From a virus (lineage: Duplodnaviria; Heunggongvirae; Uroviricota; Caudoviricetes): a stretch of 50,755 nucleotides of DNA. Positions 1 through 50,527 of the stretch are shown here, one piece after another. Made by a program: the position numbers and the translations under genes. Below the pieces are notes generated by a model that was given only the letters and a program-made list of their open reading frames with translations, had not been told where the DNA came from and did no database searches. The first letter of the stretch is position 1, and the number at the start of each line of letters is the position of its first letter. The stretch is from IMG/VR virus record IMGVR_UViG_2908959467_000003, positions 1 to 50,755 of that record; one strand, 5' to 3'.

Positions 1-1158
1 ATGCTCACCGTTAAGCAGATTGAAGCAGCAAAGCCGAAAGAAAAACCATACCGCCTACTCGATGGTAATGGCCTGTACCTTTATGTCCCTGTATCCGGAA
101 AAAAGGTCTGGCAGCTTCGCTACAAGATTGACGGTAAGGAGAAAATCCTGACCGTCGGAAAATATCCGCTAATGACTTTGCAGGAGGCAAGGGATAAAGC
201 ATGGACCGCGAGGAAAGATATCTCGGTTGGCATCGATCCGGTAAAGGCAAAAAAGGCTTCGTCTAACAACAATTCCTTTAGTGCGATTTACAAGGAATGG
301 TACGAGCACAAGAAGCAAGTCTGGTCAGTAGGCTATGCAACTGAACTTGCAAAAATGTTTGACGACGACATTTTACCTATCATTGGCGGCCTTGAAATTC
401 ATGATATTGAGCCGATGCAACTGCTGGAAGTAATCCGCAGATTTGAAGATCGCGGTGCAATGGAGCGAGCAAATAAAGCCCGCAGAAGATGCGGCGAGGT
501 TTTCCGTTACGCTATTGTCACTGGTAGGGCTAAATATAACCCGGCACCTGACCTTGCTGACGCCATGAAGGGATACCGCAAGAAAAACTTCCCGTTTCTT
601 CCAGCAGACCAGATCCCGGCATTCAACAAAGCACTTGCAACATTTTCAGGAAGTATCGTATCGCTCATTGCGACCAAAGTTTTACGCTACACAGCCCTCA
701 GAACGAAAGAGCTTCGTTCTATGCTATGGAAGAACGTCGATTTTGAAAACAGGATTATCACCATCGACGCCAGTGTGATGAAGGGACGCAAAATTCATGT
801 GGTCCCGATGTCAGACCAGGTGGTTGAACTTCTCACTACGCTAAGCTCCATCACTAAACCAGTATCAGAATTTGTTTTTGCCGGGCGCAACGATAAGAAG
901 AAGCCAATCTGCGAGAACGCGGTGCTACTTGTGATCAAACAAATCGGCTATGAGGGTCTGGAAAGCGGTCACGGATTCAGGCATGAATTCAGCACGATTA
1001 TGAACGAGCACGAATGGCCTTCTGACGCTATTGAAGTGCAACTGGCACATGCCAACGGCGGATCTGTGCGCGGTATTTACAACCATGCTCAGTATCTCGA
1101 TAAGCGCAGAGAAATGATGCAGTGGTGGGCGGATTGGCTTGATGAAAAAACTGAGTGA
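1..1158 (+). CDS. intS: Tyrosine integrase, P4 family (385 aa), IntS-like
   Basis: N-terminal KPYRLLDGNGLYL arm-binding-like region, C-terminal catalytic region (..HGFRHEF..IYNHAQY); recalled similarity to KplE1/CPS-53 IntS. Begins at window position 1. Confidence 0.8.
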   Translation: MLTVKQIEAAKPKEKPYRLLDGNGLYLYVPVSGKKVWQLRYKIDGKEKILTVGKYPLMTLQEARDKAWTARKDISVGIDPVKAKKASSNNNSFSAIYKEWYEHKKQVWSVGYATELAKMFDDDILPIIGGLEIHDIEPMQLLEVIRRFEDRGAMERANKARRRCGEVFRYAIVTGRAKYNPAPDLADAMKGYRKKNFPFLPADQIPAFNKALATFSGSIVSLIATKVLRYTALRTKELRSMLWKNVDFENRIITIDASVMKGRKIHVVPMSDQVVELLTTLSSITKPVSEFVFAGRNDKKKPICENAVLLVIKQIGYEGLESGHGFRHEFSTIMNEHEWPSDAIEVQLAHANGGSVRGIYNHAQYLDKRREMMQWWADWLDEKTE

Positions 1159-1182
1159 CCCACCTTAACAACTATCGAATAG

Positions 1183-1230
1183 CACAAAGCCTTGTAATCA
1201 AGTGCAAGGCTTTGTGTATCCCGTTTTCGC
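1183..1230 (+). terminator. Hairpin terminator downstream of integrase
   Basis: 12-bp inverted repeat CACAAAGCCTTG / CAAGGCTTTGTG (1183..1216) followed by a T-rich tract. Confidence 0.5.
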
Positions 1231-1312
1231 CTAGTTACCACTTCAAAAGTCGATCGGTGGCGATGTCAGTGCTAATATCAGCACAGCAAAAAAGAATGAA
1301 TACGGATGAATA

Positions 1313-3268
1313 ATGAGCTTTCTTTTGAAGACTGACAAAACATTGTCTAAAAATTACCAGCCAGGAGTTGATGGACTCCGTGCTGTTGCCGTCATTTTAG
1401 TTCTTATATTCCATGTAGGGTTCAGTAGTGTTCCAGGAGGGTTTGTTGGCGTTGATGTATTTTTTGTTATTTCTGGTTATCTGATAACTGGAATAATTTT
1501 TAATCAAACTGAGAAGGGAACTTTCAGTTACATTAATTTCATGTTAGCCAGGATAGCAAGACTGTACCCGGCTCTTATAGCAACGCTGATCGCCGTTTTT
1601 GCTGGATGCTTTATTCTGTACTCCCCTTCTGATTTTGTTAGCGTATCTAAATCAGCAATCTATGCTTTGTACTCAGCATCAAATATATTTTTTGCACAAA
1701 GCGTTGGTTATTTCGATACATCATCAGAAATAAATCCATTGTTGCACACATGGTCTCTTGGTGTAGAACAGCAGTTCTATCTTGCATGGCCTCTGATTAT
1801 CGGAGCAGCATATTTAGTAAAAAAGAGCCTTGTGCCATGGGTTCTGGTTATTATTAGTATTGCTTCTCTGGCATCCTCTCAGTGGGCAACTATAAACATG
1901 CAGACTGAAGCGTACTACTGGATGCCGTTCAGGGTTTTTGAGTTGTCTTTCGGCGGACTTGCATTCTTCATTTCTCGATGGATAAAACCATCTGAACTAA
2001 TGAAGGAGTCTATGATGGCTGCGGGACTTGCGATGATAGTATCATCTGCGTTGCTTTACTCATCATCAACTCAGTTCCCTGGTTTGCATGCCATGATTCC
2101 CGTATTGGGTGCCATGCTTTGCATTCTTTCACATGATGCAAAATACGCTGGCTTCGCTGTGAATAACAGGGTCAGCGTTACGATAGGCCTGATATCGTAT
2201 TCAGTTTATCTAATTCACTGGCCTATTATTGTGTTTTACAAATACTGGATATATAGAGAGTTAAATGATATCGAGAAAGCATCATTGATTTTATCTTCGC
2301 TGGCTGTTGGATTCTTAATGTACAACGCAATAGAAAATAAATTCAGAAAGATAAAAATAAATGAGTTTTGCTACAAATCAGTATTGCTTTTATCATTAAC
2401 TATATTGGTTATGATTTCGTATTCATCTTCAATAAAAGACAACGGATTTGCATTTAGAATACAAAATTATAAAGAAAACATGGAAATGCTCAAGCCTGGA
2501 TTTAAAGAATATTTATTCGGAGGCTTTGGGGTTAAGCAAGGTGAAATGGTAGTTCTTGGAGATAAAACCAAAAAGCCATCATTTGTTTTCATGGGTGACA
2601 GTTATGCAAGACAGTATTCATTAGCCATGAGTGAATTTCTTGCAAAGAGAAATCTATCAGCAGCAGCATTTTTCGCTGATGGAGCATATCTATCAAATAG
2701 CGTTTACGTTACAGAAAAAGGGAAGGTTTCTGTATATGGTGTGAAGATAGGAACAAAAGCGATAGATTACTCTAGATATAATAAGATACCACTTGTTTAT
2801 GCACAATCATGGCTTAGGTACATGGGGATGCTATCTGATAAAGATGGTAATGTGTATAAATTCAACGGAGACCATGATTATATGAAATTCAATGCTTCCG
2901 TTATTAACAATATTCAAGAGTACACAAATCAGAAAGTAATTGTTATTGGAAACCACCCGGCAGCAATAGGCTCTGACGGAGGTCTTTCTTGTGTGAGCCG
3001 ACCTTCATATGTTGAAAAGAAATGCATTGATAGTATTTTCAGCACAGAAAGCGGTGATAGGTTAGATAGCAATAATTATTTAAATAAATGGCTATCAGAT
3101 AACGGAAGTATAAAGTTTATAAACCCTTATGATTTCATGTGTAGGAATGGGAGATGTAACCTAGTATCTGACAAAGGTGACGTTATGTATTCTGATGAGT
3201 ATCATCTATCAAGATATGGAGCAAGAAAGGCAATTGAAGGGTTTGGAAATATAATTATCGATATATAA
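1313..3268 (+). CDS. Fused acyltransferase-3 / SGNH-hydrolase membrane protein (651 aa), O-antigen acetyltransferase-like
   Basis: N-terminal multi-TM region with AT3-like motifs (..VDGLRAVAVILV..FFVISGYLITG..), soluble C-terminal domain; AT-rich; sits between int and tailspike where conversion genes are found. Confidence 0.7.
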   Translation: MSFLLKTDKTLSKNYQPGVDGLRAVAVILVLIFHVGFSSVPGGFVGVDVFFVISGYLITGIIFNQTEKGTFSYINFMLARIARLYPALIATLIAVFAGCFILYSPSDFVSVSKSAIYALYSASNIFFAQSVGYFDTSSEINPLLHTWSLGVEQQFYLAWPLIIGAAYLVKKSLVPWVLVIISIASLASSQWATINMQTEAYYWMPFRVFELSFGGLAFFISRWIKPSELMKESMMAAGLAMIVSSALLYSSSTQFPGLHAMIPVLGAMLCILSHDAKYAGFAVNNRVSVTIGLISYSVYLIHWPIIVFYKYWIYRELNDIEKASLILSSLAVGFLMYNAIENKFRKIKINEFCYKSVLLLSLTILVMISYSSSIKDNGFAFRIQNYKENMEMLKPGFKEYLFGGFGVKQGEMVVLGDKTKKPSFVFMGDSYARQYSLAMSEFLAKRNLSAAAFFADGAYLSNSVYVTEKGKVSVYGVKIGTKAIDYSRYNKIPLVYAQSWLRYMGMLSDKDGNVYKFNGDHDYMKFNASVINNIQEYTNQKVIVIGNHPAAIGSDGGLSCVSRPSYVEKKCIDSIFSTESGDRLDSNNYLNKWLSDNGSIKFINPYDFMCRNGRCNLVSDKGDVMYSDEYHLSRYGARKAIEGFGNIIIDI

Positions 3269-3277
3269 TATAAATAA

Positions 3278-3314
3278 TTGTGCGCACTATTTAACTTTTT
3301 CATAGTGCGCACAA
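3278..3314. terminator. Bidirectional hairpin between convergent acyltransferase and tailspike genes
   Basis: 13-bp perfect inverted repeat TTGTGCGCACTAT / ATAGTGCGCACAA with 11-nt loop. Confidence 0.6.
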
Positions 3315-3316
3315 AT

Positions 3317-5473
3317 TTACAGCGTTGGGAAGTTTGTTGATAATGGTACTATTGCATATTCAAGTTTTGTTGGCGGATTATTTGCAGCGCTGTATGTTGA
3401 AAGAGCCTCAAGCACAATATACCCACTCCCGTTGTACCCTGCTTTGAAGCAACTTTGCAGGTTTGCTATGGATGTGTCTCCTGGATTTAACCGCTGATCA
3501 ATGGGTGATTTAAGGTCAGTTGCATCTGCCCTGTCCGTTGCGTCATGCGCACCGGAAGACATGATATAAGTAGCATAATTATTTTTTACACCTCCAGTCA
3601 CTTTTATGTGGAGAAGGTAAAGAGTGCGATCAGATGTAGAACCAGTCAATATCTGTTTATCAAGAGTAATTCGTACCTTTGAGCCATCAGATAACACAGG
3701 TAAAGACTTGCTTAACATTGCTACGCCATTAACAGTATTATCATAACCATTTCCGATATAGTTACCTGAACCTACAAAAGCTGAGTTCATTCGCCAGATA
3801 TCTTCTGCCGTAAATAACCCTGACGTAATGAAGTTACCTGTCCATACGTTTCTGTTTCTTTCTGGTCTTGCATTAAGCACCATTCCAACACCCCCGGCCA
3901 TGAAGTTGCCAGATATAACTGCTCCTGACATATCGGTAGTGTTGATGCATTGGAGTCTTAGGTCTTTGTTAACGCCAGGATCAAGAACCATTTGCATGGT
4001 ATTGCTGTTGATACTAATTCCGGCACACCACATGCCATTAAAACCGTTGTTATTGTTGTTTAACGCCTGTGAAGCGATGAAATTAAATATCCTCTGTTCT
4101 GAAGGATTTGTAGCACCTTTATAGTAGAAAACATTATTAGATATGCTAACAAGTGAGGTGCGCAAGAATATCGCAAAGTCATTTAACGGGTTTTCTTCAA
4201 AATGAAATACGTTGTTCGATATAGAAGATCTGCCACCTAATCCGACGCGAGTGCTGCTATCAAATTGCAATGACATCATCTTAATAGCAGTGTTAACAAA
4301 ACGGTTTGATGTTAAAGATACTTCAAGGCCGCCGGTAAAAGTATCAAATTCACATGCGCATTCCGTATTCCTGTTGAAGAAAAGATTGCCGTTAACATTC
4401 CCACCTACGGTAGCGCCACCAATTTTACCTAAGTCAGAGTTAGCTCCACTCTGCATAAAAACATCAAAGGTGTTATTCGTTACATGGAACATTGACTTGC
4501 GAGGCGTTCCAATGTCGACTGATGCAGTCGTGTTGCCAAGAATCATCAGATATGGATATACCTCACCCTGTTCACCTGACATTCCTGCATCAGAGATATA
4601 CTGATCTGTGTTGTCATCAGTCTTGCAGTAGTTATTATCAACTGAGATATGTACGCTGGTTGGGTCCTGACAGTTAACCATGATGTAGCCAACACCGCAG
4701 TTAAAGCATTGCATATCTTTTATCACCACTCGCGTTGGCAAATTCGCCAGCCCATCAGGGTAATCATTGAAAATTACCTGAGGACGCTGGGTGTGGTATG
4801 CATTTGCGGTGAACTTACCGCCGATAATCTCTACTGATTTTGCGCCAAGCGGATGGAAAATATAATCAATGCCATTGAAGGTAAATTCTCCAGTAGAAGC
4901 ATCGATAATGATGTCTCCTGGGATGGTGACGGGGGCCGTTACATCGTACACACCTGATGCTACAACTCTCGTTTTGTTTGCAACCGCATAATTTACAGCT
5001 GCCTGTAATTTTTCTGACGCATTACTTCCGGGGAATACCTCGGGGACAACCCATTTGATGGCATCCTGTACCGTGCCATATGGCATAATCCCAACAAGAC
5101 CAGCGCCGTCTTGATTAGAAAGCCTAATCTCAAATTGATCAGGGTCGTACTTCAGCACATTAGGGAAATAGAACTGCTGTGATCCATATGCATCGTACAC
5201 AGACATAGAATGACCTTGCACAGTTACAAACTTGGCAATCTGTCCGTTATATACCGGATATCCAGCAGCATTAATGATGATTGGTTGCGAAACAGGAACG
5301 TGAGAGCCATCTTCGTTCTCTACATAAACCTGAATCTGGTTTTCTGGATTTACGGGGTCCGTGTCAATTTTACCGATATAAATTTTGCCATTGGCAACCG
5401 CTTTAAAAGAACGCGCCATAGTGAAAAGTTGCGAAGGCATCGATACGATCACATTGGCTGTAATGTCTGTCAT
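3317..5473 (-). CDS. Tailspike protein (718 aa), P22 gp9-type head-binding domain with divergent receptor-binding domain
   Basis: N-terminus MTDITANVIVSMPSQLFTMARSFKAVANGKIYIGKIDTDPVNP.. matches the recalled P22 tailspike head-binding domain; remainder is G/N-rich beta-helix-like and unlike P22. Confidence 0.85.
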   Translation of the reverse strand: MTDITANVIVSMPSQLFTMARSFKAVANGKIYIGKIDTDPVNPENQIQVYVENEDGSHVPVSQPIIINAAGYPVYNGQIAKFVTVQGHSMSVYDAYGSQQFYFPNVLKYDPDQFEIRLSNQDGAGLVGIMPYGTVQDAIKWVVPEVFPGSNASEKLQAAVNYAVANKTRVVASGVYDVTAPVTIPGDIIIDASTGEFTFNGIDYIFHPLGAKSVEIIGGKFTANAYHTQRPQVIFNDYPDGLANLPTRVVIKDMQCFNCGVGYIMVNCQDPTSVHISVDNNYCKTDDNTDQYISDAGMSGEQGEVYPYLMILGNTTASVDIGTPRKSMFHVTNNTFDVFMQSGANSDLGKIGGATVGGNVNGNLFFNRNTECACEFDTFTGGLEVSLTSNRFVNTAIKMMSLQFDSSTRVGLGGRSSISNNVFHFEENPLNDFAIFLRTSLVSISNNVFYYKGATNPSEQRIFNFIASQALNNNNNGFNGMWCAGISINSNTMQMVLDPGVNKDLRLQCINTTDMSGAVISGNFMAGGVGMVLNARPERNRNVWTGNFITSGLFTAEDIWRMNSAFVGSGNYIGNGYDNTVNGVAMLSKSLPVLSDGSKVRITLDKQILTGSTSDRTLYLLHIKVTGGVKNNYATYIMSSGAHDATDRADATDLKSPIDQRLNPGDTSIANLQSCFKAGYNGSGYIVLEALSTYSAANNPPTKLEYAIVPLSTNFPTL

Positions 5474-5608
5474 TTAATTTGCTCCAGATACAAGGAATCG
5501 CCGCAGCGTGGCTACGGTTGGTGTTTGTTGCATACCGAAACGGTACGATTGTTGATTTGTACAGTAGGTTTTACGATGCCATTCCACCCAACTGGTGAGG
5601 CATCAAGG

Positions 5609-5869
5609 ATGTACAGCAAATACGACGAGGCGCAGTTTCACTTGAGACTTCCGCATGAACTTCACGCGAAAATTAAGCAGCGTGCGAAGATGAATAACAG
5701 GTCGCTGAACTCAGAGATAATTGCAGCGATTGAAGAATCATTGGCTAAACAAAGCTCTGCATCCGGTTACATTGACGATGCAGAGCGTATGGCAGAACAA
5801 CAATCCGATATGGTAAAGAAAATTGTCTTTGATACGCTCAAAGAGCTATATAAAAAAGACAGCAGCTAA
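5609..5869 (+). CDS. mnt: Mnt-like ribbon-helix-helix repressor (86 aa)
   Basis: MYSKYDEAQFHLRLPHELHAKIKQRAKMNNRSLNSEII.. resembles P22 Mnt; ATG at 5609 preceded by GGTGAGG. The longer track ORF from 5210 is an upstream extension. Confidence 0.7.
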   Translation: MYSKYDEAQFHLRLPHELHAKIKQRAKMNNRSLNSEIIAAIEESLAKQSSASGYIDDAERMAEQQSDMVKKIVFDTLKELYKKDSS

Positions 5870-5958
5870 CTATCAGTTACGGAGGATTTATGCAAAGAGA
5901 TATGATGAATATTGCATTCTACATATTTGGTTTTTGCACTTTCCTGGTGTTTGCAAAG

Positions 5959-7956
5959 CTATTCTGACAACGCATCAGACTTAGCCCCCTGCGTCAGAGC
6001 GTTAATGGCCTTTTGCGCCTGCTGCATGGCTTTCTCAAACGCTGTTGATCCGCGTGGGGTATTTGCCATTCGTAGCATTGCATTTCTGAATGGCTCACTC
6101 TCATAGGCGCGAGCAAGAAGTCCGTAGCTTACTGCTGCTCCAGTTGTCGCCGGGTTCATTGCCGTACCATACCCGATAATGAACGGGATGGTTTGCTGCC
6201 CTGTTGGTGTTGTTACTGCCGCTTTTGCAGCCTGCTGCGTGGATTGCAGATAGTTTTTTAATCCTTTCAGATAAGCAGCGTCCTGCCCCTTAAATGTGAT
6301 GCCAGTCTGGTTTTGCAGGATGTTAAGCTGTCGAAGGAACTGGTCAGGGGATCCACCTGATTTCTCCATCGCCTTCCCAATGATGCCATTGCGCATTTGC
6401 GCCCTACCAACACGACCAACTGAGTTATACAGCGTCTTAATTTCCGATTTGTTCTTGCTGAATAGCATGTTGTTGACAACTTCCGGCGTCAGGTCGCCTT
6501 TCATGAGAACATTCTTCAGCCTTGTATTCTTTAATTTCGCCGCTTCGTCAGCGTAGACGGCATTGGCCTGCTGATATTTACGGAGAGTATCGTTGCCAAG
6601 ATTCTGACCAATGGCACCATTGATATCGTCTGTCATCGCCTTGTAAACGCGCTGAATGGCAGCATCGGAACGGTTTGGTAACACTGGTCGTTCCCCCTTC
6701 ACGTCCATTCTGAACTGGCTGCGCAGATCGCTTAATTGCTTCAAATCCAGATTTACCGGACCATCAGGACCAGCATTGCGAACAAGCTCATCACGATAGG
6801 ACTGAAGTTTTGAAATAGTCTCGTTATCAGCAACCTTACCAAGCTTCTGCAGGTTAGATATTTCTGTATCAATCTGCTGAATTGCTCGCGCAGGCTGGAT
6901 ATTGACTCCCGCCATTGCATTCTGAACCTGCTCAAGACGGTTCCCTGCAGCACGACGAATTCCTGATGTTTTCGCTTTAAGGCTGTCAATAACAACAGCT
7001 GGATCATACTCACCGAATTTATCAGAAAATCTCTGCACCAACTGGCTTCTCGCTTCCTGTTGCGTTGCTCTCATTCCGCTTGTGCCAGCCAGGGGGATAT
7101 TTTCCGCTGTCGTCTGCGCCATTTTCCCGACGCGGGAAGTAGGCTGTAACAGGTCTGTGGTGTGCAGAGGAACTCCTTCACGCTCTGCAAATCTGATAGC
7201 CTGCTGCGCTTCTGGCGCAATAGCACCACGAACGCCACGATAAGCAGCACCTAATCCACGCCCGGCAGCGTTAATAGCGCCGCCTGCCAGAACGCCAACA
7301 CCTAAATCGGTAGCGAGGGCTTCCGCATCATCTTTCATACTGTTTGCAGCAAGTGATCCAACTGCGTTTTCTGCGAGAAGGCGAGTTGCCCCCCGAGCAA
7401 TTCGACCAGCAAGTGTTGGTGCCTGTGCTGCCGCTCTCTCAACGCCAGCAGGAGTGAGGTAAGGCAATGCTTCAGCAAACACCCTTCCCTCTGTCGTTTG
7501 TGGAGTGAGCGCGCCTTGCTGAAAGCCAAAGTCCTGCTCTAACCCCTGCGTTGTTACTCGTGGCGCTGGTTGATATGTACCATCGCCAATGCCGAGTTTA
7601 CCGCCAGCCCATGCCGCTGCGCTTGTTACAGCATCGGCAACTGATGCAGGTATGTTTGCCACGTTCACACCAGCCTGCACCAGTCCGCGACCAGTCTCTT
7701 TTACTGCTTCGCCAAGATCAGACATAAATCCACTTTGCTGTGGTTGATGCTGTGCTACTGGTTGTTGTGTCTCCACTGGCTGCACAGATGGCAATGGATA
7801 GGCAGCATAGAAAGCTTGCTTAGCCTGCTCTGCATTTTCTCCGGCTTGCGGGGCCACGACTTCATTGAAGTATTGCTCCTGAGCCTGCGCTTTTTGTTCT
7901 GGTGCTAACGCCTGATACTGTGGAGAGGCGATAACATCTTTCCATGCTTTAGCCAT
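5959..7956 (-). CDS. Ejection/internal protein, P22 gp16-like (665 aa)
   Basis: Position and size in the P22 order after gp20; A/Q/G-rich ejection-protein composition. Confidence 0.75.
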   Translation of the reverse strand: MAKAWKDVIASPQYQALAPEQKAQAQEQYFNEVVAPQAGENAEQAKQAFYAAYPLPSVQPVETQQPVAQHQPQQSGFMSDLGEAVKETGRGLVQAGVNVANIPASVADAVTSAAAWAGGKLGIGDGTYQPAPRVTTQGLEQDFGFQQGALTPQTTEGRVFAEALPYLTPAGVERAAAQAPTLAGRIARGATRLLAENAVGSLAANSMKDDAEALATDLGVGVLAGGAINAAGRGLGAAYRGVRGAIAPEAQQAIRFAEREGVPLHTTDLLQPTSRVGKMAQTTAENIPLAGTSGMRATQQEARSQLVQRFSDKFGEYDPAVVIDSLKAKTSGIRRAAGNRLEQVQNAMAGVNIQPARAIQQIDTEISNLQKLGKVADNETISKLQSYRDELVRNAGPDGPVNLDLKQLSDLRSQFRMDVKGERPVLPNRSDAAIQRVYKAMTDDINGAIGQNLGNDTLRKYQQANAVYADEAAKLKNTRLKNVLMKGDLTPEVVNNMLFSKNKSEIKTLYNSVGRVGRAQMRNGIIGKAMEKSGGSPDQFLRQLNILQNQTGITFKGQDAAYLKGLKNYLQSTQQAAKAAVTTPTGQQTIPFIIGYGTAMNPATTGAAVSYGLLARAYESEPFRNAMLRMANTPRGSTAFEKAMQQAQKAINALTQGAKSDALSE

Positions 7957-9344
7957 TAATCACCCCATAGTGAAGAAAAATTACTGCTGGCTGCTGGTTG
8001 TGATACCTGTGCAGGTTGAGATTGCTGCCGCTGAGATTTACCAACATTAACGTTATATTGTTGGTTGTAATTGTTGGTGTATTCCTGAATCTCACGAATC
8101 GACTGCTGCATAGCCTCCGGGCTTGAATAGTCAACCTGCGGCATCCCCTGAAAATACATCTTCGCTTCTGCAACGGTGTTAATACCACTGGCACCCATGT
8201 CCCTTGCTGCCGCCACACCCTGATTCTGCATTCTGCCCTGAATCCGTTGTGCTGAGTTATATAACTGGCGCTGCTCTTTTCCTGTTAATCTGCTGCGAAC
8301 ATCAGCACCAATTGCTGGATTACCTGCACCGCCTGTCATTCCTGTCATGAAATCGAGAGCAGAAGCGTCTGCATTTGCGATCGCGTCGATATCCTTCTTC
8401 ATGGCATAGTTTTGTGCTGATGCAGACGATGTTGCAGGCGCAGCGATTGAACTGGCAGGGACGCGAACCATATTCCCCTCGTTGTCGATGCCTTCGTAGA
8501 ACGCATTAGCCCCAGCGCCGTGAAGTTTCCCGCCTACCGTTACAGTTCTGCCATCTGATAACTGAACTGTACGCTCATCATTCCCAGCGGTTCCTCTTGT
8601 TGACGCTCGCTGCATTGCCAAATCCTGCCCGCGTCTCGCAGTAGAAGCAGATAAGTCCTGACCGCGCATCGTGATGTTCTGGCCTCGTGCTGTTAGCGCC
8701 TCGCCAGCCTGATTGCTGCGGATTGTCTCTGCCAGCCTGCCTCGGTCAATCTCACGACCTGCCATCTTGTCCTGAACATTGAAGTAATCAATCGGACCAA
8801 GAGCAGCCATCCCAAGGTGATCAACAAACTCACCAAATCCTGAAGGGTTCTGCTGATACATCTGAGCAACGCTGTTAGGGTCAACACCGACGCGAGTCAG
8901 TTCCTTGGCGTTGTTTTGCAGCCATGATTGCATTGCTTCTGGAGACGATGACGCAAGGCGTGCGCCAGCCGCTAAGGTGCCGATAGAATTACGCTGCTCT
9001 TCATCAATGAATCCCATGCCTTTACGAACGGATTCAATCTGGTCTGGATATTGAGTAGCCAACTGACGCAAAGCACCGCGATCACCAGACGCATAAGCAT
9101 TAGCGTATGCCTGCTGAAATTCTTTCTGCCGCTGAGCCTGCTTTTCCTGCTGAAAAACACCCGCAATACCTGAAAGACCTTGCAAGGCCGTCAGTCCAAC
9201 ATTGTTAGCGCCTGAACGCTCAATATCATTGTTCTGCCTGATAAGCTGAAGCGTATTTCCGATGTCATTTACGCTAGGGGCGTTTGAGTTGACGCCACCG
9301 ATACCAGCCAACAATCCGCCATTTGTTCCTTGCCAAGTAGCCAT
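7956..9344 (-). CDS. Ejection/internal protein, P22 gp20-like (462 aa)
   Basis: Synteny between gp7 and gp16 homologues; size matches. Confidence 0.75.
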
Positions 9345-9353
9345 GATTACCCC

Positions 9354-10046
9354 TTAAAACAACGAGCCAAGCAATCCGATACCAGCACCAATGCCAGCGC
9401 CCCAAGGTGTTGATGTTCCCAAAAGGCTGGCAAGACCTGCACCGGCAATCGCACCAGACGTGCCACCGCTAATTGCAGTCTGAAGACTTGATGGTTTATT
9501 GGCATTAGCAGCGGCAAGAGCTGCGCTTTGCTGTGCAATGCTGCTCATGTTGTTGGCGTACGTCTGCCCGGCGTTTGCCTGACCTTGCAGCGCACCAAGC
9601 CCAACGTTTGCCAGATTGTTGTAATTGCTCATCTGGTTTGATAACCAAGACTGACCGAGAGTCGGCGCGATTGTAGCCAGTTGATTGCTTGTGGCTGTCG
9701 AACCAAGTCCACCCGTCGCCTCCGCAGCAGCAAGACTCTGGTAGCGAGCCTGACCTGCAAGGTCTTTATACTGCTGAGAGTTGTAATACTGATTAAGTGC
9801 CTTCCCCTGACCTTCTAAACTGGAAAGATTCTGAAGCTGGTTAACATACTGCTCCGCAAGCGGCGTGAACAGAGCAAGGTTTTTCATGATCGTCTGCCAC
9901 TGCTGATTTTGCAGGTCTGCGGCATACTTCTGGGCTTCTGCTGCATACTTTGCGCTTTTATCAGAGCTACCACCTTTCCCGCCTTTTTCATGGCACCAAG
10001 GTTCCTCGCCGCGCAGTTTTCTGCCCAGCTTAAATGCATATAACAT
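9354..10046 (-). CDS. Ejection protein, P22 gp7-like (230 aa)
   Basis: Synteny and size; G/A-rich C-terminal tail. Confidence 0.75.
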   Translation of the reverse strand: MLYAFKLGRKLRGEEPWCHEKGGKGGSSDKSAKYAAEAQKYAADLQNQQWQTIMKNLALFTPLAEQYVNQLQNLSSLEGQGKALNQYYNSQQYKDLAGQARYQSLAAAEATGGLGSTATSNQLATIAPTLGQSWLSNQMSNYNNLANVGLGALQGQANAGQTYANNMSSIAQQSAALAAANANKPSSLQTAISGGTSGAIAGAGLASLLGTSTPWGAGIGAGIGLLGSLF

Positions 10047-21457: not shown

Positions 21458-21988
21458 TCACACCATTCCGGGCAAATACATTTGCACTTCATTTGCCGCT
21501 CTCTCACGTGCAACATGAAGCAATCTTTTTCGCCCACCAACGCCCCACTTAGCCATTTGGCTTGCGCACTGGCTTATCGCTTTGGTTTCAGTATTGATGA
21601 TGTGATCGATTCTATTCAGACGGGACATTGCGCCAACGCCGAGACGGACAACCGTTTTGAAAACTTCATAAACTTCGATTTCAAATTCCGGCTTAATCCA
21701 TGCTGCATATCTGATTGCCAGAAGTTCAACGCCCCACACACCTGGTTCTGCACCACCTTTGATTATTTTAAGTGGTTGAATTTGTTCCAAAGTGCTTTTT
21801 TGCACTTTGGCCTCCAGTGCTTTTATGAAGCGTTTTATCTGCGAGCTACGCAAAAACTGGCTTGGGCGCTGTTGCTCTGTAGCCTCTCCGTTTGCAACTG
21901 CTGCTGCATGGAGATCGTTTAAGTTGTAGCGTCCGTCCTCATCAACACGAACGGACACACCATTGACAATAACTGTTGGGTACTTCAT
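21458..21988 (-). CDS. KilA-N domain protein (176 aa)
   Basis: N-terminal ..DGRYNLNDLHAAA..RPSQFLRS.QIKRFIKALE resembles the KilA-N signature. Confidence 0.5.
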   Translation of the reverse strand: MKYPTVIVNGVSVRVDEDGRYNLNDLHAAAVANGEATEQQRPSQFLRSSQIKRFIKALEAKVQKSTLEQIQPLKIIKGGAEPGVWGVELLAIRYAAWIKPEFEIEVYEVFKTVVRLGVGAMSRLNRIDHIINTETKAISQCASQMAKWGVGGRKRLLHVARERAANEVQMYLPGMV

Positions 21989-40220: not shown

Positions 40221-40380
40221 TGAACACTTCTCACTAAGTCCAATTAATTCCATAACTCACTGTTTTAACTGATATCATCTCCTTATACTCGTCCAGCAAA
40301 GTACCATTATTTCTAATGGAATCTATACATCTTTGCGTATAACATTGTGTATAACTGAGTTCGATCTTTTTTCTATACAC

Positions 40381-41556
40381 ATGCTGCTATCTGACATCCA
40401 AATAAAAAGAGCAAAACCGAAGGACAAACCCTATACGCTTAACGATGGTATGGGGCTATCACTCCTGATCGACACAGCGGGCAGTAAAGGCTGGCGTTTT
40501 CGCTATCGCTTTGCAGGTAAGCCTAAGATGATTTCCTTTGGCGTATATGGCGATGTGTCGTTGGCACAGGCACGTACCAAACGTGATGAAGCGCGTTCGA
40601 TGTTAGCCAAAGGGATAAACCCAAGTGAAGCCAGAAAAGCAGATAAGATTGCTTTGCAGTTCGCGCATGAGAACAGCTTTGAGTCTGTGGCCAGAGAATG
40701 GCACTCATCGAAAAAAGCCACCTGGTCAGAGGGTTATGCAAAAGAGGTTCTCAATTGTATGGAAAAGGATATTTTTCCTTTTATCGGCCAGCGCCCAATT
40801 GAGCAGATTGAACCATTAGAACTGCTAACCGTCCTGCAAAAAATAGAGAAAAGAGGTGCGCTAGAGCAAACCAGTAAGATCCGCCGCCGCTGTGGTGAAG
40901 TGCTTCGTTATGCTGTTGCCACTGGTAGAGCAAAGTATAATTTTGCACCCGATTTAGCTATCGCACTCAACAAACCTAAAACCCAACACTTCCCGTTCCT
41001 GACTGAAAGCGAGTTGCCCGAGTTCGTTAATGCTCTGGATAACTATCAGGGCAGTTTAGTTACCAAATACGCCACGCAGCTGTTGATGCTAACAGGCGTG
41101 CGAACAATTGAACTACGTGCAGCGGAATGGGCTGAGTTTGATTTAGATAATGCCTTATGGGAGATCCCCAAAGAACGGATGAAGAAACGCCGCCCCCATC
41201 TGGTTCCGTTATCAACTCAGGCGATCAATATCCTGAAAAAGCTGCAAGAAATAACAGGGAATTACAGCCTCGTTTTCCCTGGCCGAAATGACGTCAGGAA
41301 ACCAATGAGCGAAGCCAGCATCAACAAAGTGATAAAACTACTGGGTTATCACGGTCGGTTAACGGGTCACGGTTTCAGGCATACCATGAGCACCATCTTG
41401 CATGAGCATGGGTTTGAAAGTGCCTGGATTGAAATGCAGCTTGCGCATGTTGATAAGAACTCTATTCGAGGTACTTACAATCATGCGCAATATATTAAAG
41501 ATCGACAAGTAATGATGGAATGGTACGCTAGCTTATTAAATACGACCTGCTATTAA
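40381..41556 (+). CDS. Tyrosine integrase, P4 family (391 aa)
   Basis: MLLSDIQIKRAKPKDKPYTLNDGMGL.., ..RRRCGEVLRYAVATGRAKYNFAPDLA.., ..HGFRHTMST..; paralogous to the int at 1..1158. Confidence 0.85.
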   Translation: MLLSDIQIKRAKPKDKPYTLNDGMGLSLLIDTAGSKGWRFRYRFAGKPKMISFGVYGDVSLAQARTKRDEARSMLAKGINPSEARKADKIALQFAHENSFESVAREWHSSKKATWSEGYAKEVLNCMEKDIFPFIGQRPIEQIEPLELLTVLQKIEKRGALEQTSKIRRRCGEVLRYAVATGRAKYNFAPDLAIALNKPKTQHFPFLTESELPEFVNALDNYQGSLVTKYATQLLMLTGVRTIELRAAEWAEFDLDNALWEIPKERMKKRRPHLVPLSTQAINILKKLQEITGNYSLVFPGRNDVRKPMSEASINKVIKLLGYHGRLTGHGFRHTMSTILHEHGFESAWIEMQLAHVDKNSIRGTYNHAQYIKDRQVMMEWYASLLNTTCY

Positions 41557-42486
41557 ATCCAGCATGAAACAAATATGGTGAGTAATTTGATACTGTTTGT
41601 TTTTTGGCAACCCAGGGAAATGCCTTACAGTTGGTTGACTATTGTAATAATAATAGTTAAGACCAATGTTGCTGCCAAACTGGGTTGGATGTTGGGGAAC
41701 AAGATTTGTAATTTGATCTGAAACATCTAAAAATTTTGCAGTAACATTTGAACTTCCTCGTTGCGTGTTGCTTGATACAAAATGACGAATCCAAACTGTA
41801 TTCGCTTGTAAATTCTTGAACACCAAATGTGCGGCAACAGCAGAAGGTTGACCACCTCCAAGATCTAGTACCTGGCCAGTAATTGTATAATCGCCAAATC
41901 CTAAGTAATTTTGTCCCACGAATTGATGTGCGTGCGTGAAAAGTTCCGGCCCATTATAATCAGCATTTTTTGCTAACTTTCTAAAGTTATCGCTAATAAT
42001 AATTAACTTCGACAAAGGAAGAAGAGCGCACTGATTAGGAAGCATTTTATTATTTAAAACAACATGATAACTAATCAATTGATTTGTCGCCAACAACTGA
42101 ATATCAGAGTTGGATAATGATGGATTATCATATAGAAGTGCAACTCGTCTATTTAAGTTAGCATTCAACCAATTATTAATATCATTAATCGTTGTATTGG
42201 GCTGAATAAGATATCCAGAGATGATATTGTTTTTATTTGTTAATACACTTGATAAATTTTGATTTAAAGTTAAGACGTTATTGTGTGAAGAAAAATCTTC
42301 CTGATAAGGATTAAGGATAACAATTATGTCAGAATTCCAAACATTTAAACATGTTAATAAATTTCTCGTATTGACGTTAATTGGTTCTAAAATTGGTAGC
42401 AGACCATTTAGGCTAACTCCCTTCGCAACGAGGTCCCTAAGGCATAATAACTCTGTACTTCTCGCATACAAATATGGGCTATACAT
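41536..42486 (-). CDS. Cargo protein B (316 aa), unknown function; second gene of an AT-rich two-gene operon
   Basis: N/S/L-rich low-GC ORF, 21 nt after gene A; no recognised motif; 3' end overlaps the convergent int by 21 bp. Confidence 0.6.
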   Translation of the reverse strand: MYSPYLYARSTELLCLRDLVAKGVSLNGLLPILEPINVNTRNLLTCLNVWNSDIIVILNPYQEDFSSHNNVLTLNQNLSSVLTNKNNIISGYLIQPNTTINDINNWLNANLNRRVALLYDNPSLSNSDIQLLATNQLISYHVVLNNKMLPNQCALLPLSKLIIISDNFRKLAKNADYNGPELFTHAHQFVGQNYLGFGDYTITGQVLDLGGGQPSAVAAHLVFKNLQANTVWIRHFVSSNTQRGSSNVTAKFLDVSDQITNLVPQHPTQFGSNIGLNYYYYNSQPTVRHFPGLPKNKQYQITHHICFMLDLIAGRI

Positions 42487-42507
42487 AACTTACAACTCCT
42501 GAGGATA

Positions 42508-43389
42508 TCAACAAATTTTAATTTTTACATCCATCAAATTCATGATGAATTCTTTTTGCTTTCTTGATAATGGTGTTGCATAACCTAAAACACGTAAACA
42601 TGCTGGAAGAGAATAAATATAATCCAAAAAAACTTTGTCGTTACATCTTTTTTTCATAGCAGAGATAAAGTATTTATTTGCTATGTTTAATGGCATCTGC
42701 ATGAATATCTCTTTACAATATTCATAAACCAATCCATTAGGCATATTTATTTTAGTTGAAGTGTAATCTTCTATTATAGCTAAGAACTCTTCCTTTCTAA
42801 GAACTGAAAACAAGCTGTCACTTTTAATATAATCAATATTTGAATCTGCCTCCTTAATGACACTCAATTGATCTTTTTTATTCAAAACCATAACTCCCAC
42901 TCTGGGGAGATTTAAAGCACAATATTTACTTGCATACTCTGGATGTGTAACTATATACACTTTATCAAAAACATCCAAATAATCAGGGGCTTGAGTAATC
43001 AACCTTTTTGGTGAATCATACTCTGTCTTAATCTCGTAAGCTGTAGACGTACCATTAAACACCGCAACATCCACTATAGAGTTTTTAATTGGTAACTCTA
43101 TGGACGACGAACTTGTTTTTGGGCTGTGCTTACCGAATATTATTTTATTGACAAGTGCTGTCTTATAAACATATTCATTTCTATAATTCAGACGCAAAAA
43201 ATCATATAATGATGTAAATAAATCCCTTAGTGAAATCTCATGTTCATTATTATCATTGTTTGAAAACAGTGTTTCATAGCAGTAAGAATCAAAACTCCCA
43301 AATAAATCCGAAATATCCTTACCTTTTGCTAAGGATGAAAAAATGGGGCGACGGAAAAATTTAGCATATTCCTTTTTATTATGACTCAT
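42508..43389 (-). CDS. Cargo protein A (293 aa), putative PD-(D/E)xK nuclease-fold protein
   Basis: ..SIELPIKNSIVDVAVFNGTSTAYEIKTEYD.. gives the E / hydrophobic-D / E-x-K arrangement; AT-rich. Confidence 0.6.
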   Translation of the reverse strand: MSHNKKEYAKFFRRPIFSSLAKGKDISDLFGSFDSYCYETLFSNNDNNEHEISLRDLFTSLYDFLRLNYRNEYVYKTALVNKIIFGKHSPKTSSSSIELPIKNSIVDVAVFNGTSTAYEIKTEYDSPKRLITQAPDYLDVFDKVYIVTHPEYASKYCALNLPRVGVMVLNKKDQLSVIKEADSNIDYIKSDSLFSVLRKEEFLAIIEDYTSTKINMPNGLVYEYCKEIFMQMPLNIANKYFISAMKKRCNDKVFLDYIYSLPACLRVLGYATPLSRKQKEFIMNLMDVKIKIC

Positions 43390-44069
43390 TACTCATACTC
43401 TATAAACATCATGCAATTTGATAAGTTATGACGAATTCTCACCATCCAGTTACTACCTGTACATACTAATCAAAAAAAACGAGTACGCAAGATACGAAAG
43501 TACTTTTCTTGTTCACCAGTTAGCTTACCTTGATCCTCACCAGCGACTGGAAGATAGGTAGCAGTATATGTGGAAACCTTCCCCTAGCTAGGTCTACAAA
43601 CGTAGTTTGGGCATTTAGGCTCCACGATTCACGGTTTGACACGGCCTGATATCTGCACATTCGTTTTGATATGCAGCAATCGTGAAAAAGGGAAAATATA
43701 CGCTCGACAGACCAAAACGGCACTACACCGCACCCGCCTGCGGTTTTCATATCACTAAAAATTTTCAGCCTGGATTTTTTACAAACGATACCGCCAGTCC
43801 GTGCCAGTCCTCGAGATGTACTGCGATACAGGAACTGAAAAGAATGAAAAGAAATTCATTTTTTTTCAGTTTTACTGTCCGTCGAATCTATGGCCTGAAT
43901 ACGCAACTCTATGATATTAAATGGATAATTAATTTTAGGTGTGTGATTTTATGAAGGTTTGTGAAACATGAAGAAGATAACCAGTTGAAAAATAATAATT
44001 TTATGACCGTATAAACTGAAATCCTGTGTTCAGGTTCCGGGAACAGATCGGCCATTCCCGACGCATACT

Positions 44070-44342
44070 TTACCCATTCTTTTGCGCAGCCAGCAGCAAC
44101 TTTAAAGCCTTTTCCCGTTCCTCGGGTGGAATTGCATCAATCAGCTCTTTAACCCTTCCCTGCCCGTTCAGCGCGCTTGGACTAACGGAATGGGAGAAAG
44201 CAACATTCATCACAAACGAGTGACCGCACTCCACATTAGAGCAATAGCAGTACACATCGTACAGTTGTGGGTGTTTCCTGTTTGTTTTACCTATCCGTGC
44301 TACTGCCTGACATGTGGGGCAGTACATTCTCATCATCTTCAT
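44070..44342 (-). CDS. ogr: Ogr/Delta-family zinc-finger late-gene activator (90 aa; start may be an internal Met)
   Basis: C-x2-C...C-x4-C pattern (MYCPTCQ..CYCSNVEC) as in P2 Ogr / P4 Delta. Confidence 0.7.
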   Translation of the reverse strand: MKMMRMYCPTCQAVARIGKTNRKHPQLYDVYCYCSNVECGHSFVMNVAFSHSVSPSALNGQGRVKELIDAIPPEEREKALKLLLAAQKNG

Positions 44343-44408
44343 CGTTCTGTGCCCTATACTGTTGCCCGCCAGAAGAAGGGATTTGGATCCCTACCTCTTG
44401 TTCTGAAC

Positions 44409-44598
44409 GTGTAACACTGGTAACACGTGTAACGCTATTGATTTAAAAGGATTTAATCTGTTACCAGTTAGCAAAATCAAGAGGTAACGCGTGGTAACAC
44501 ACCATTTTTTGTTACCTCTGTTACCAGTCAGTATTTTTGACTGGTAACACTGAAGAACCGCATCAGTAACGGGTGTTACCTCTGTTACCAGTGTTACC
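44409..44598. repeat. Iteron cluster: at least 12 copies of (G)GTAACAC / GTGTTACC in about 190 bp, P4 crr/ori-like
   Basis: Repeats read directly; motif TGTTACC is one base from the recalled P4 alpha-binding octamer TGTTCACC. Confidence 0.65.
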
Positions 44599-44624
44599 TC
44601 ATAAAAATAAGACTCACGCGATAA

Positions 44625-47312: not shown

Positions 47313-47719
47313 AGCAGCACCTCCTGACCTTCCGGCTTCACAAATTCAAAACCTTCGGGTAGTTCGCCATCAGGTGCTCCGAAAATAATATCCCGGTAAA
47401 CCTCACGCATCTCTGTGACACCAAAAACTGACAGGCGAATATTTTCTGACATAAAGCCTGGTTTAAGCATTTTTTCCAGTTTCTCTGCGGCCAGTATGCA
47501 ACCAGCATCAGCCCCAAACTCATTCACCCACGGCATTTCAATATGGTAAATAATATTACTCACCACTTTTTCGTGGGAGAGTTCTATTCGTTCGCCATCT
47601 TCAATATAAACAGGTTCATTATGAACACGCACCATTAAGGAAATGAATGCATCAGCAATGTAGTAGCGTAAGACTGCTGTTCGTAAAGCATGCGCCTTTA
47701 AATTTTGATTATTATTCAT
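47309..47719 (-). CDS. Hypothetical protein (136 aa) upstream of the primase
   Basis: Overlaps primase start; position analogous to P4 epsilon/orf151. Confidence 0.45.
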   Translation of the reverse strand: MNNNQNLKAHALRTAVLRYYIADAFISLMVRVHNEPVYIEDGERIELSHEKVVSNIIYHIEMPWVNEFGADAGCILAAEKLEKMLKPGFMSENIRLSVFGVTEMREVYRDIIFGAPDGELPEGFEFVKPEGQEVLL

Positions 47720-47948
47720 CGCGCATCACTCCCTTAATTGTGCTGGTTTCCTTAACAACGCCATCCAGTTGTTCGGCAATACAGGCCACTAAAGCCGCAG
47801 CGCCTTCCGCTGAAACAGTTCTCGCTCCATTCACTGTGGGCACGGACAAGACCTCTGCAAGAAACTCACTGGCCAGTGCCGCCCGTAACAGACGACTCTC
47901 CCCCTGTTCACTCAATATGCAGCCTTGCTTAAAATTCATGGATTTCAT
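47712..47948 (-). CDS. Hypothetical protein (78 aa)
   Basis: Operon member; no motif. Confidence 0.4.
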   Translation of the reverse strand: MKSMNFKQGCILSEQGESRLLRAALASEFLAEVLSVPTVNGARTVSAEGAAALVACIAEQLDGVVKETSTIKGVMRDE

Positions 47949-48148
47949 GCAACCACCTCCCCGGCTCTTTTCACAGGGATACGGGCAGCAAAGCTCAGGA
48001 TAAATTCAGTGGCAAGTTTAAGGCGTGCAGCATGCTCGCATTCTGCGATTACACGCACAGGGCGTGGACGGGCATCACGGTCTGTACGGCGGACAGCCAG
48101 AAAGACAAAGGTAAATTCAGGGTGAGATAAAGCAGGGACTGTAGCCAT
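47945..48148 (-). CDS. Small hypothetical protein (67 aa), first gene of the alpha operon
   Basis: ATG at 48148 with GAAGGAGG RBS; the longer track ORF to 48535 is an unsupported extension. Confidence 0.4.
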   Translation of the reverse strand: MATVPALSHPEFTFVFLAVRRTDRDARPRPVRVIAECEHAARLKLATEFILSFAARIPVKRAGEVVA

Positions 48149-48160
48149 AATGGCAACCTC

Positions 48161-48425
48161 CTTCAGATAGCGGGTAACGCTACCACCGGAGTTCCTACGC
48201 TCATGGGTGGTAGCCCAGACGGGGGTAGGAATACCGGCTCTGAAGGATACCGGCCAGCCCGAAAGCTGCCCCGCCTGGACTACCATAATTCTGATGATGT
48301 GGCGTAAAAAATAAAAAAATACAATCAGCCACCACACCATAAATTTTAGGTGAGTCAAAGCTGCGACACAAAAAAACACGCCTGGCGCGTGTAGTATCGC
48401 CTTCAGATAACACGGGTTCCTACGC
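48161..48425 (-). promoter_or_regulatory. Candidate RNA immunity region (P4 seqA/cI/seqC-like) with internal terminator
   Basis: Two direct copies of CTTCAGATA..GTTCCTACGC (48401..48425, 48161..48200) flank a reverse-complement copy (48225..48247); hairpin + U7 at 48370..48392. Confidence 0.4.
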
Positions 48426-48577
48426 CCGGCTGCCGATTTTGCGGCAACCTTTAAACTATATCCCGCGCATTCCTGGTGAGGCAAGAAATTTATAACCGAA
48501 AACTGATCATTGCCTGGATTAATTAACGCTGGCATGCTTAAGCCTCTGCTTAAAAATAGTTCTTCATTTTTCCTGAT

Positions 48578-48608
48578 GCTGTAAACGAGACCCGCCTCTG
48601 AGCGGGTC
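48578..48608 (-). terminator. Hairpin terminator after capsid-like gene
   Basis: Minus-strand GACCCGC-UCAGAG-GCGGGUC followed by UCGUUUAC. Confidence 0.45.
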
Positions 48609-48622
48609 TTTCTGTCGCTAAG

Positions 48623-49627: not shown

Positions 49628-49649
49628 AGTTTTTCACCTTTTTAAGTAT

Positions 49650-50510: not shown

Positions 50511-50527
50511 ATATTTGCCACCTCAAT

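Follow-up and report, generated by a model that had tools for sequence, protein, structure and literature searches.

What keeps a gene for an Mnt-family repressor in a P22-like prophage from which ant, the antirepressor gene that Mnt represses in P22, is missing? In the P22 annotation, the immI region, which separates genes 16 and 9, holds sieA, orf59a, mnt, the Omnt/Oarc operators, arc, sar, and ant, in agreement with the order sieA-mnt-arc-ant given in the initial annotation of the DNA analyzed here. That annotation described, at the corresponding position, a reduced immI region whose only gene, coding for an Mnt-like protein, may be a relic or may regulate something else. The same question is already in print for phage L/ST64T, and mnt-only "ant morons" have been published for the Salmonella phages ST64T, ST104, and L (Villafane et al. 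2008, PMC2629481; bioRxiv 10.1101/2020.10.05.325894). Our literature search found no functional studies of orphan Mnt or of the Mnt of Sf101, and in the published accounts of mnt-only phages that we consulted we found no mention of the Q-H-R/ATACC specificity class described below, of Pant decaying in parallel in phages without ant, of this mnt lineage being an orphan even beside complete immI units, or of estimates of selection. These points refine the known picture without changing it.

An Mnt-family repressor gene beside the tailspike gene

The window, that is, the whole 50.7-kb stretch of DNA that was analyzed, is occupied by a P22-like prophage (Lederbergvirus, Sf6/Sf101-like), with a P4-like satellite, separate from this prophage, at its right end (40.3-50.8 kb; its RNAs C4 and isrK map to 48.2-48.4 kb). 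On the left, the prophage encodes a P4-type integrase (1-1158, plus strand), an AT3-SGNH O-acyltransferase (1313-3268, plus strand), and a tailspike of 718 aa (3317-5473, minus strand), which is homologous to the products of P22 gene 9 and Sf6 gene 14 according to its Pfam Head_binding match (2.5e-66) and its annotated relatives. Exactly 135 bp (5474-5608) separate the start of the tailspike gene from mnt (5609-5869, plus strand), which encodes an 86-aa protein; the two genes are divergent, and the coordinates of this arrangement in the initial annotation are correct. Farther on, the genes for the ejection proteins gp16, gp20, and gp7 together span 5959-10046 on the minus strand. The first of them (5959-7956, minus strand), a homolog of P22 gene 16 and Sf6 gene 13, is convergent with mnt and with a 25-codon open reading frame (ORF) described below; it shares 93% identity with the 3′ end of gene 13 from Sf6, and its relatives are named "P22-gp16 family phage DNA ejection protein" by PGAP. 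Among the other ORFs of the prophage, Pfam and PHROG scans recognized a C2-type repressor, CII, N, Erf, Abc2, a DnaB-type helicase, Nin proteins, and a Q-type antiterminator.

The product of mnt has the two-domain architecture of P22 Mnt. Its N-terminal part matches the ribbon-helix-helix domain Arc (PF03869, 6e-15, residues 7-50), and its C-terminal part the tetramerization coil Repressor_Mnt (PF11423, 3.4e-14, residues 57-82). Consistently, the protein matches the solved N-terminal domain of P22 Mnt (PDB 1mnt, 1.6e-20, residues 6-79) and its solved C-terminal domain (PDB 1qey, 1.6e-8), and also the structure of Arc (1arq, 9e-4). As in P22, the gene lies between the homologs of genes 16 and 9, on the strand opposite to the late operon. 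With both domains and this location, the protein belongs, on sequence criteria, to the Mnt repressor family; the match to the C-terminal coiled-coil domain predicts that it forms a tetramer. The ATG at 5609 is preceded by a Shine-Dalgarno sequence, GGTGAGG (5594-5600). An alternative upstream start at 5576, used in the Sf101 annotation and yielding 97 aa, was rejected: it overlaps the −10 element of the mnt promoter counterpart, has no ribosome-binding site, and the alignment of P22 Mnt begins at 5609.

The rest of immI is absent from the window

Searching the whole 50.7-kb window by tblastn with Arc, Ant, SieA, and orf59a of P22, Ant of CUS-3, Rha and KilA of JEP4, and the small "antirepressor" of VSe13 returned mnt as the only match, so that mnt itself is also the only match for Arc. 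For ant in particular, six antirepressor-type proteins served as tblastn queries, and some 40 ORFs of the window were scanned against Pfam and PHROG; none of these ORFs contains an ANT, Bro-N, or P22_AR/P22-Ant domain. The initial annotation had named an intact ant gene elsewhere in the prophage as the observation that would overturn its reading, and these searches found none. Rfam likewise detects no sar RNA in the window, and within 5300-6100 it returns nothing at a threshold as loose as E ≤ 1. A P1-type c4-ant module, suggested by the C4 and isrK RNAs, was considered and discarded, as these RNAs lie in the P4-like satellite, which has no ant. Compared with a complete P22-type immI, the locus therefore lacks ant, lacks arc with the Arc operator and sar, and lacks a strong Pant overlapped by Omnt. 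The claim that the Mnt-like gene alone is present holds for arc, ant, and sieA and fails to include the 25-codon ORF at 5890-5967.

The only gene in the window that could loosely be called antirepressor-like encodes a KilA-N protein of 176 aa (21458-21988) and lies between the lysis genes and terminase, inside the late operon. It is not a homolog of Ant. The proteins most similar to it, with identities of 82% or more, all come from phages of Salmonella and Klebsiella (ST104, SE1, MG40, and ST64B, for example) and do not include any from Sf101 and IME10, which bear the Mnt allele of the window; judging from these relatives, the KilA-N protein is unlinked to this mnt allele.

Operator and promoters in the mnt-tailspike spacer

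The spacer was aligned with those of P22, epsilon34, L, Gally, and VSe13, and the assignments of operator and promoters derive from alignment to P22. The mnt-proximal 78 bp (5531-5608) are homologous to the Omnt-Pmnt/Pant segment of P22 and epsilon34. A 13-bp junction (5518-5530), delimited by the alignments, connects this operator module to a conserved tailspike (gene 9) leader of 44 bp (5474-5517, minus strand) with its ribosome-binding site (GGAGCAAATTAA-ATG). The leader is nearly identical in P22, epsilon34, CUS-3, where it is known as the "bsq1 boundary sequence", and phage L; in P22, epsilon34, and CUS-3, it comes after the ant terminator. The site of the junction holds arc-sar-ant-terminator in P22 and epsilon34 and ant in CUS-3, and in four relatives (L011, L059, L066, and L085) HNH homing endonuclease inserts of 414-728 bp occupy it. 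The description of the locus as a reduced immI is borne out by this structure, in which the P22-type control segment is followed directly by the gene 9 leader.

Within the module, the 17-bp palindrome CATACCGAAACGGTACG (5531-5547), with the core ATACC-N5-GGTAC at 5532-5546, is a candidate Mnt operator. It is in register, column for column, with GGTCCACCGTGGACC of P22 and epsilon34 and with AGACCAC(G/T)GTGGTCT of L and Gally, and it lies 1 bp from the −35 element of the Pmnt counterpart, the same spacing as in P22. The initial annotation had proposed a search of the spacer for an Mnt-type operator, and it is this positional homology to P22 Omnt that supplies a candidate. A palindrome of such quality is unremarkable in 135 bp, and another one sits in the tailspike leader; the operator call thus rests on positional homology and conservation. 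The core is invariant in spacer variants of 121, 132, and 135 bp as well as in VSe13 and JEP4, whereas the sequence to its left is non-homologous among the variants and about one position in four is changed to its right.

No other 17-mer in the window matches the palindrome at three or fewer mismatches, so that the candidate operator occurs just once in 50.7 kb, which lends no support to the suggestion that the repressor regulates something else. At one mismatch or fewer, the core has 4 matches in the window against 0.99 expected, a number that was also reached in 2 of 100 shuffles; three one-mismatch matches, all inside genes and one of them overlapping the KilA-N start, were judged to be due to chance. 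The P22-type operator, GGTCCACNGTGGACC, has no match in the window at up to three mismatches, which indicates that the Mnt of the window does not use the P22 site.

In the alignment, the β-strand recognition residues H6, N8, and R10 of P22 Mnt, to which the window protein is 50% identical, are replaced by Q, H, and R, and the operator GGTCCACCGTGGACC of P22 by ATACCGAAACGGTAC. Three classes can be distinguished: the residues H-N-R pair with a GGTCCAC palindrome (P22 and epsilon34), Q-N-R with AGACCAC (L and Gally), and Q-H-R with ATACCGA (the window, Sf101, JEP4, and VSe13). Further immI-like units have distinct palindromes of their own at the equivalent position. The covariation of residues and palindromes across the three allele classes lends indirect support to a specific binding of Mnt to the 5531-5547 palindrome.

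Promoters were scored with a crude sigma-70 matrix which recovers the annotated Pant and Pmnt of P22 at 16.0 and 13.6, respectively. The Pmnt counterpart (5549-5577, plus strand) consists of a −35 element TTGTTG (5549-5554), a 17-bp spacer, and a −10 element TACGAT (5572-5577) and is positionally homologous to the annotated P22 Pmnt, TTGAGA-17-TATCAT. Its score of 8.54 is the best on the mnt strand, although not above background, for which the 90th percentile is 9.7. A stock scan for promoter and terminator consensus sequences and an inverted-repeat finder gave nothing useful on the spacer and did not call Pmnt. On the opposite strand, the Pant counterpart (5553-5582, minus strand) has ATGGCA (reverse complement of 5577-5582) in place of the P22 −35 element TTGACA and ACAAAT in place of the −10 element TATATT. 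The best minus-strand score in the spacer is 4.5, that of the Pant counterpart being no higher, versus 16.0 in P22 and epsilon34; the background median best score is 6.84. The Pant counterparts of L, Gally, and VSe13, like that of the 121-bp variant, are low as well (6.2 or less). By sequence score, then, the Pant counterpart has decayed; that of Pmnt has been kept. The initial annotation had viewed the spacer as a divergent promoter region; the mnt-directed half of this view stands, whereas the tailspike-directed promoter looks dead, so that the spacer would not be a divergent promoter pair and the tailspike gene would have to depend on read-through from the late operon.

Distribution and conservation of the mnt unit

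Among 81 sequences, comprising the window and its 80 closest viral-contig relatives, mnt is intact in 80, and a single relative has a premature stop. Variable sites are distributed 11/11/34 over the three codon positions. The dN/dS of mnt is 0.036 in comparison with a relative carrying the 121-bp spacer (L007), and that of the N-terminal DNA-binding domain is 0.08 in comparison with JEP4, at pS 0.66. For the orphan alleles of L and Gally, pS reaches 0.92, at which synonymous sites are saturated, with pN at 0.20. These substitution patterns show mnt to be under strong purifying selection rather than debris, and together with its wide retention they contradict the relic option of the initial annotation.

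The allele with its operator is present in 255-323 of 5,426 complete Escherichia coli genomes (about 5%), and its product belongs to a 681-member cluster at 90% identity that is named only "Arc family DNA-binding protein". To place the unit in context, we considered roughly 250 related viral loci collected in three overlapping searches of viral contigs with Mnt N-terminal peptides and the operator 16-mer. In every locus that contains mnt and has the tailspike start within reach, the operator is followed by the tailspike gene or by an HNH gene and then the tailspike gene. Downstream of an ATACC-N5-GGTAC operator, no ant, rha, or kilA is present in any of these roughly 250 loci. JEP4-like prophages carry a full immI-like unit that has a palindrome of its own and encodes Arc and KilA, a Rha- or Ant-type protein, and a second Mnt; they additionally keep the tailspike-proximal Q-H-R mnt with a single operator. 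In the sequences at hand, the Q-H-R Mnt lineage is an orphan wherever it is seen, yet it is conserved.

As a separate observation, the operator 16-mer was also found in an unrelated type of phage, upstream of two tandem small genes, at about the frequency expected by chance for a collection of this size.

A conserved 25-codon ORF downstream of mnt

An unannotated ORF of 25 codons, MQRDMMNIAFYIFGFCTFLVFAKLF, begins 20 bp past the mnt stop codon (5890-5967, plus strand), is preceded by a GGAGG ribosome-binding site (5881-5885), and overlaps the stop of the gp16 gene by 9 nt. It is full length in all 73 sequences in which it was found (72 relatives and the window), with the ribosome-binding site kept, and its variable sites are distributed 8/4/12 over the codon positions, which is suggestive of a coding sequence. 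The peptide has one predicted hydrophobic helix and no entry in a collection of 15 billion proteins. Sf6, which is devoid of mnt, carries the ORF where gene 13 ends, with four synonymous and three conservative changes; the ORF may therefore belong to the gp16 module rather than to an mnt operon. In some relatives, a lipoprotein gene sits between mnt and the ORF. Neither scanning nor folding detected a terminator after mnt or after the 25-codon ORF, and a transcript from mnt would thus run antisense into the gp16 gene.

Comparison with related phages

The locus resembles P22 immI in its location, the orientation of mnt, the two-domain protein, the homologous control region, and the distance between palindrome and −35 element, and differs from it by the absence of arc, Oarc, sar, ant, the ant terminator, sieA, and orf59a and by the decay of Pant. 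In gene content it is like phages L, ST64T, and ST104, and also E. coli phage Gally, in which mnt is the sole immI gene. With phage L, it shares the 135-bp spacer, the gene 9 leader, the location of the palindrome, the retained Pmnt, and the decayed Pant. In contrast, L and Gally encode an Mnt allele that is only about 50-60% identical, with a Q-N-R strand and the AGACCAC(G/T)GTGGTCT operator. Moreover, in phage L mnt is followed by a convergent lipoprotein-like gene, orf62, and a bidirectional terminator, whereas in the window it is followed by the co-directional 25-codon ORF, with no terminator and no orf62 homolog anywhere in the window.

The same Mnt allele, at 96-99% protein identity, is encoded by Sf101, IME10, and many E. 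coli prophages, including those of E. coli W and strains M6 and M9. These share with the window the layout gp16 / small ORF / mnt / operator / tailspike, but mostly have a 121-bp spacer, the tailspike-proximal half of which is unlike that of the window; their mnt gene is either unannotated or misleadingly annotated as "partition protein ATPase" or "Arc family DNA-binding protein". Sf6 has the same order of virion genes, oac and int beside the tailspike gene, and the 25-codon ORF, but lacks mnt, operator, and Pmnt, with just 164 bp between gene 13 and the tailspike gene.

Possible roles of the orphan repressor

Considering that mnt is present without arc, ant, and sieA and that its operator module is joined directly to the gene 9 leader, we regard the locus as probably a minimal "ant moron" of the L/ST64T type, in which the mnt half of an immI region like that of P22 forms a self-contained, self-regulating, prophage-expressed unit. 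Expression of Mnt would start at its own promoter (about 5549-5577) and, as in P22, would presumably take place in the lysogen; the protein would tetramerize through its C-terminal coil and would occupy the single operator at 5531-5547 just upstream of the −35 element of Pmnt. The former target promoter, Pant, once aimed at arc-ant and then at the tailspike gene, appears to have decayed, and the tailspike would be expressed solely by read-through from the late operon. The mnt transcript may also cover the 25-codon ORF, which would then be co-transcribed with mnt and translated into a membrane peptide, and, in some relatives, the lipoprotein gene too. The activity of Pmnt in the lysogen and the autoregulation of the unit are both extrapolated from sequence. 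In work by Vershon and colleagues from 1987, P22 Mnt is reported to stimulate Pmnt mainly by shutting off Pant; if so, the loss of Pant counts against the self-regulating part of the reading and leaves the retention of the operator unexplained.

A bolder version of the minimal unit, which is possible though rather improbable, is that the Q-H-R Mnt and its operator make up an autonomous regulatory module, with an output that would be either the transcription entering the tailspike gene or the prophage-expressed membrane peptide of 25 residues, which might, for instance, act in exclusion or in conversion. If so, the module would be kept by selection even beside a separate, complete mnt-arc-ant-like unit of another specificity.

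The rival explanations are taken here from the best to the least surviving, the second and the third being on a par. The foremost is unlikely: operator-bound Mnt, together with convergent transcription from Pmnt, would limit the transcription that reaches the tailspike gene, either in the lysogen or at an early stage of infection, and the regulated output would be the level or the timing of the tailspike. Such transcription could stem from weak residual Pant activity or from upstream read-through, out of the late operon in the window and out of the arc-rha/ant-kilA operon in JEP4-like relatives. Fitting this possibility, the unit adjoins the tailspike gene in all contexts observed, among them the loci with a separate, complete immI-like unit upstream that reads toward the tailspike, and the ant moron of P22 is considered to influence how often transcription of the late operon arrives at the tailspike gene, a process in which Mnt and Arc possibly take part (PMC2629481). 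The 121-bp variant also retains a marginal Pant-like element (ATGGCA-17-AATACT, score 6.2), whereas the Pant counterpart of the window scores under the background median. However, close coupling is evidently not required, given the HNH gene of 0.4-0.7 kb that separates operator and tailspike gene in some relatives, and Sf6 and HK620 do without any mnt. For read-through from the late operon, a ribbon-helix-helix tetramer would moreover have to stop antiterminated transcription.

Quite unlikely is a role in trans, whereby resident Mnt would repress the ant gene of a superinfecting P22-like phage with an operator of the same specificity so that the incoming Ant could not inactivate the C2-type repressor of the resident prophage and induce it. 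This would extend the role of P22 Mnt in maintaining lysogeny through repression of ant, would be in line with the finding that antirepressors cross-induce other prophages (PMC7380047), and would account for selection on mnt without a target in cis. Nevertheless, it presupposes a type of locus that is not represented among the roughly 250 examined, namely one with ant, rha, or kilA behind the ATACC-N5-GGTAC operator. Ant-like operons, where present, encode an Mnt and an Arc of their own and have other palindromes, and conservation of the resident operator would be left unexplained.

The chances are just as slim that the unit is a functionless leftover of immI, heading to deletion after the loss of arc and ant. 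The cognate target gene is indeed missing, Pant has decayed, one of the 80 relatives has lost an intact mnt to a premature stop, and Sf6 is devoid of the entire region; for phage L, a "remnant" was among the options raised. Against this stand the dN/dS of 0.036-0.08, obtained also in comparisons near synonymous saturation, the L-Gally divergence given above, the predominance of third-position changes (34 versus 11 and 11), and the operator core, which is retained while its flanks diverge. Furthermore, despite the rapid gene turnover for which the region is known, the unit persists in more than one genomic setting, several being represented, and in some 5% of the complete genomes of E. coli.

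Finally, control of a distant gene such as that for the KilA-N protein is highly improbable: a one-mismatch match to the core, ATAACTGTTGGGTAC (21969-21983), does overlap the first KilA-N codons, KilA-N proteins are at times annotated as antirepressors, and core matches exceed expectation, but the mismatch hits the invariant ATACC core, shuffled sequences occasionally reach the same count, the full 17-mer has no further match at up to three mismatches, and the gene is part of the late operon and has its closest relatives in Salmonella and Klebsiella phages, not in Sf101 or IME10.

Implications

The mnt-only layout is itself ordinary, being known for L/ST64T and common in E. coli, and has little import beyond annotation, where the gains are small: a conserved micro-ORF and the correction of wrong database names such as "partition protein ATPase". 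With respect to the biology of P22-like prophages, the comparative data indicate that their orphan Mnt repressors are selected genes that come in several operator specificities, with pairs of recognition residues and palindromes that can be read from comparison of the alleles. Since the allele analyzed here occurs in about one of every twenty complete E. coli genomes, it would be a convenient system for addressing the role of mnt in ant-less phages.

Mnt homologues and the gp16-tailspike interval in relatives

Homologues of Mnt, the ribbon-helix-helix repressor encoded between gp16 and the tailspike gene, are named "partition protein ATPase" in RefSeq, where the records NC_027398 (Sf101), NC_004348 (ST64T), NC_005841 (ST104) and NC_019501 (IME10) were examined. 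This name is incorrect: the products are ribbon-helix-helix repressors of 83-97 aa. The Sf101 homologue is annotated from an upstream start, giving 97 aa, and the mnt homologue of IME10 carries no annotation.

In some relatives, a gene for an HNH/AP2-type homing endonuclease (162-179 aa) is inserted between the candidate Mnt operator and the tailspike leader (2330-2869 in L011, L059 and L066; 2361-2855 in L085), at the junction which in P22 is occupied by arc-ant. The gp16-tailspike interval of JEP4-like prophages (L219, L228 and L240, about 3300-6400) encodes two or three Mnt paralogues. There, one complete unit consists of mnt2, a palindrome, arc, rha or ant, and kilA, with an operator type of its own, such as TTGGTTCTAGAACCAA or GACATCACCATGATGTC; the second unit comprises a tailspike-proximal mnt with the Q-H-R recognition residues of the window-type repressor and an ATACC-N5-GGTAC site.

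Operator-like sequences at other loci

The exact 16-mer CATACCGAAACGGTAC of the candidate operator was seen again in an unrelated phage type (L090, L094, L107, L113, L131, L137, L142 and L153). It lies immediately 3′ of a TATATA box and ~20 bp ahead of the start codons of two tandem small genes, which adjoin the large terminase gene; in L090, the two copies (7579-7594 and 8094-8109) are 515 bp apart. This recurrence may reflect chance amplified by relatedness, or the 16-mer may be the operator of a repressor with the same specificity. In the window, a one-mismatch match to the operator core (21969-21983) overlaps the first codons of a gene for a KilA-N domain protein of 176 aa (21458-21988, minus strand), which is flanked by the lysis cassette and the small terminase gene and whose product shares 94-95% identity with proteins from Salmonella phages MG40, SE1 and ST104. 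This match is probably due to chance.

Flanking genes and an adjacent satellite

At the left end of the window, beside the tailspike gene, a P4-type integrase gene starting at base 1 and an oac-like O-acyltransferase gene (AT3 and SGNH domains) are neighbours on the plus strand (1-3268), separated by only about 155 bp. No tRNA genes were found across the entire window. At the right end, the P22-like prophage is adjoined by a second mobile element, a P4-like satellite (40333-50755), encoding an integrase (40333-41556), an Ogr/Delta zinc-finger protein (44070-44342), a primase-helicase (44625-47312), an Ash-family protein (47945-48535) and a P2-family capsid-like protein (48623-49627), along with the Rfam-matched C4 antisense RNA (48203-48290) and isrK RNA (48371-48448).

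A conserved small open reading frame beside gp16

An unannotated 25-codon ORF, MQRDMMNIAFYIFGFCTFLVFAKLF (5890-5967, plus strand), overlaps the gp16 stop by 9 nt, is preceded by a GGAGG ribosome-binding site and would encode one predicted hydrophobic helix. Its predicted peptide has no entry in a collection of 15 billion proteins. All 73 sequences in which the ORF was found, from 72 relatives and the window, have it at full length, with 8, 4 and 12 variable sites at codon positions 1, 2 and 3, respectively. Sf6, which lacks mnt, also has it (L289, 703-780), with four synonymous and three conservative changes. The ORF is a candidate gene for a small membrane protein of P22-like phages.
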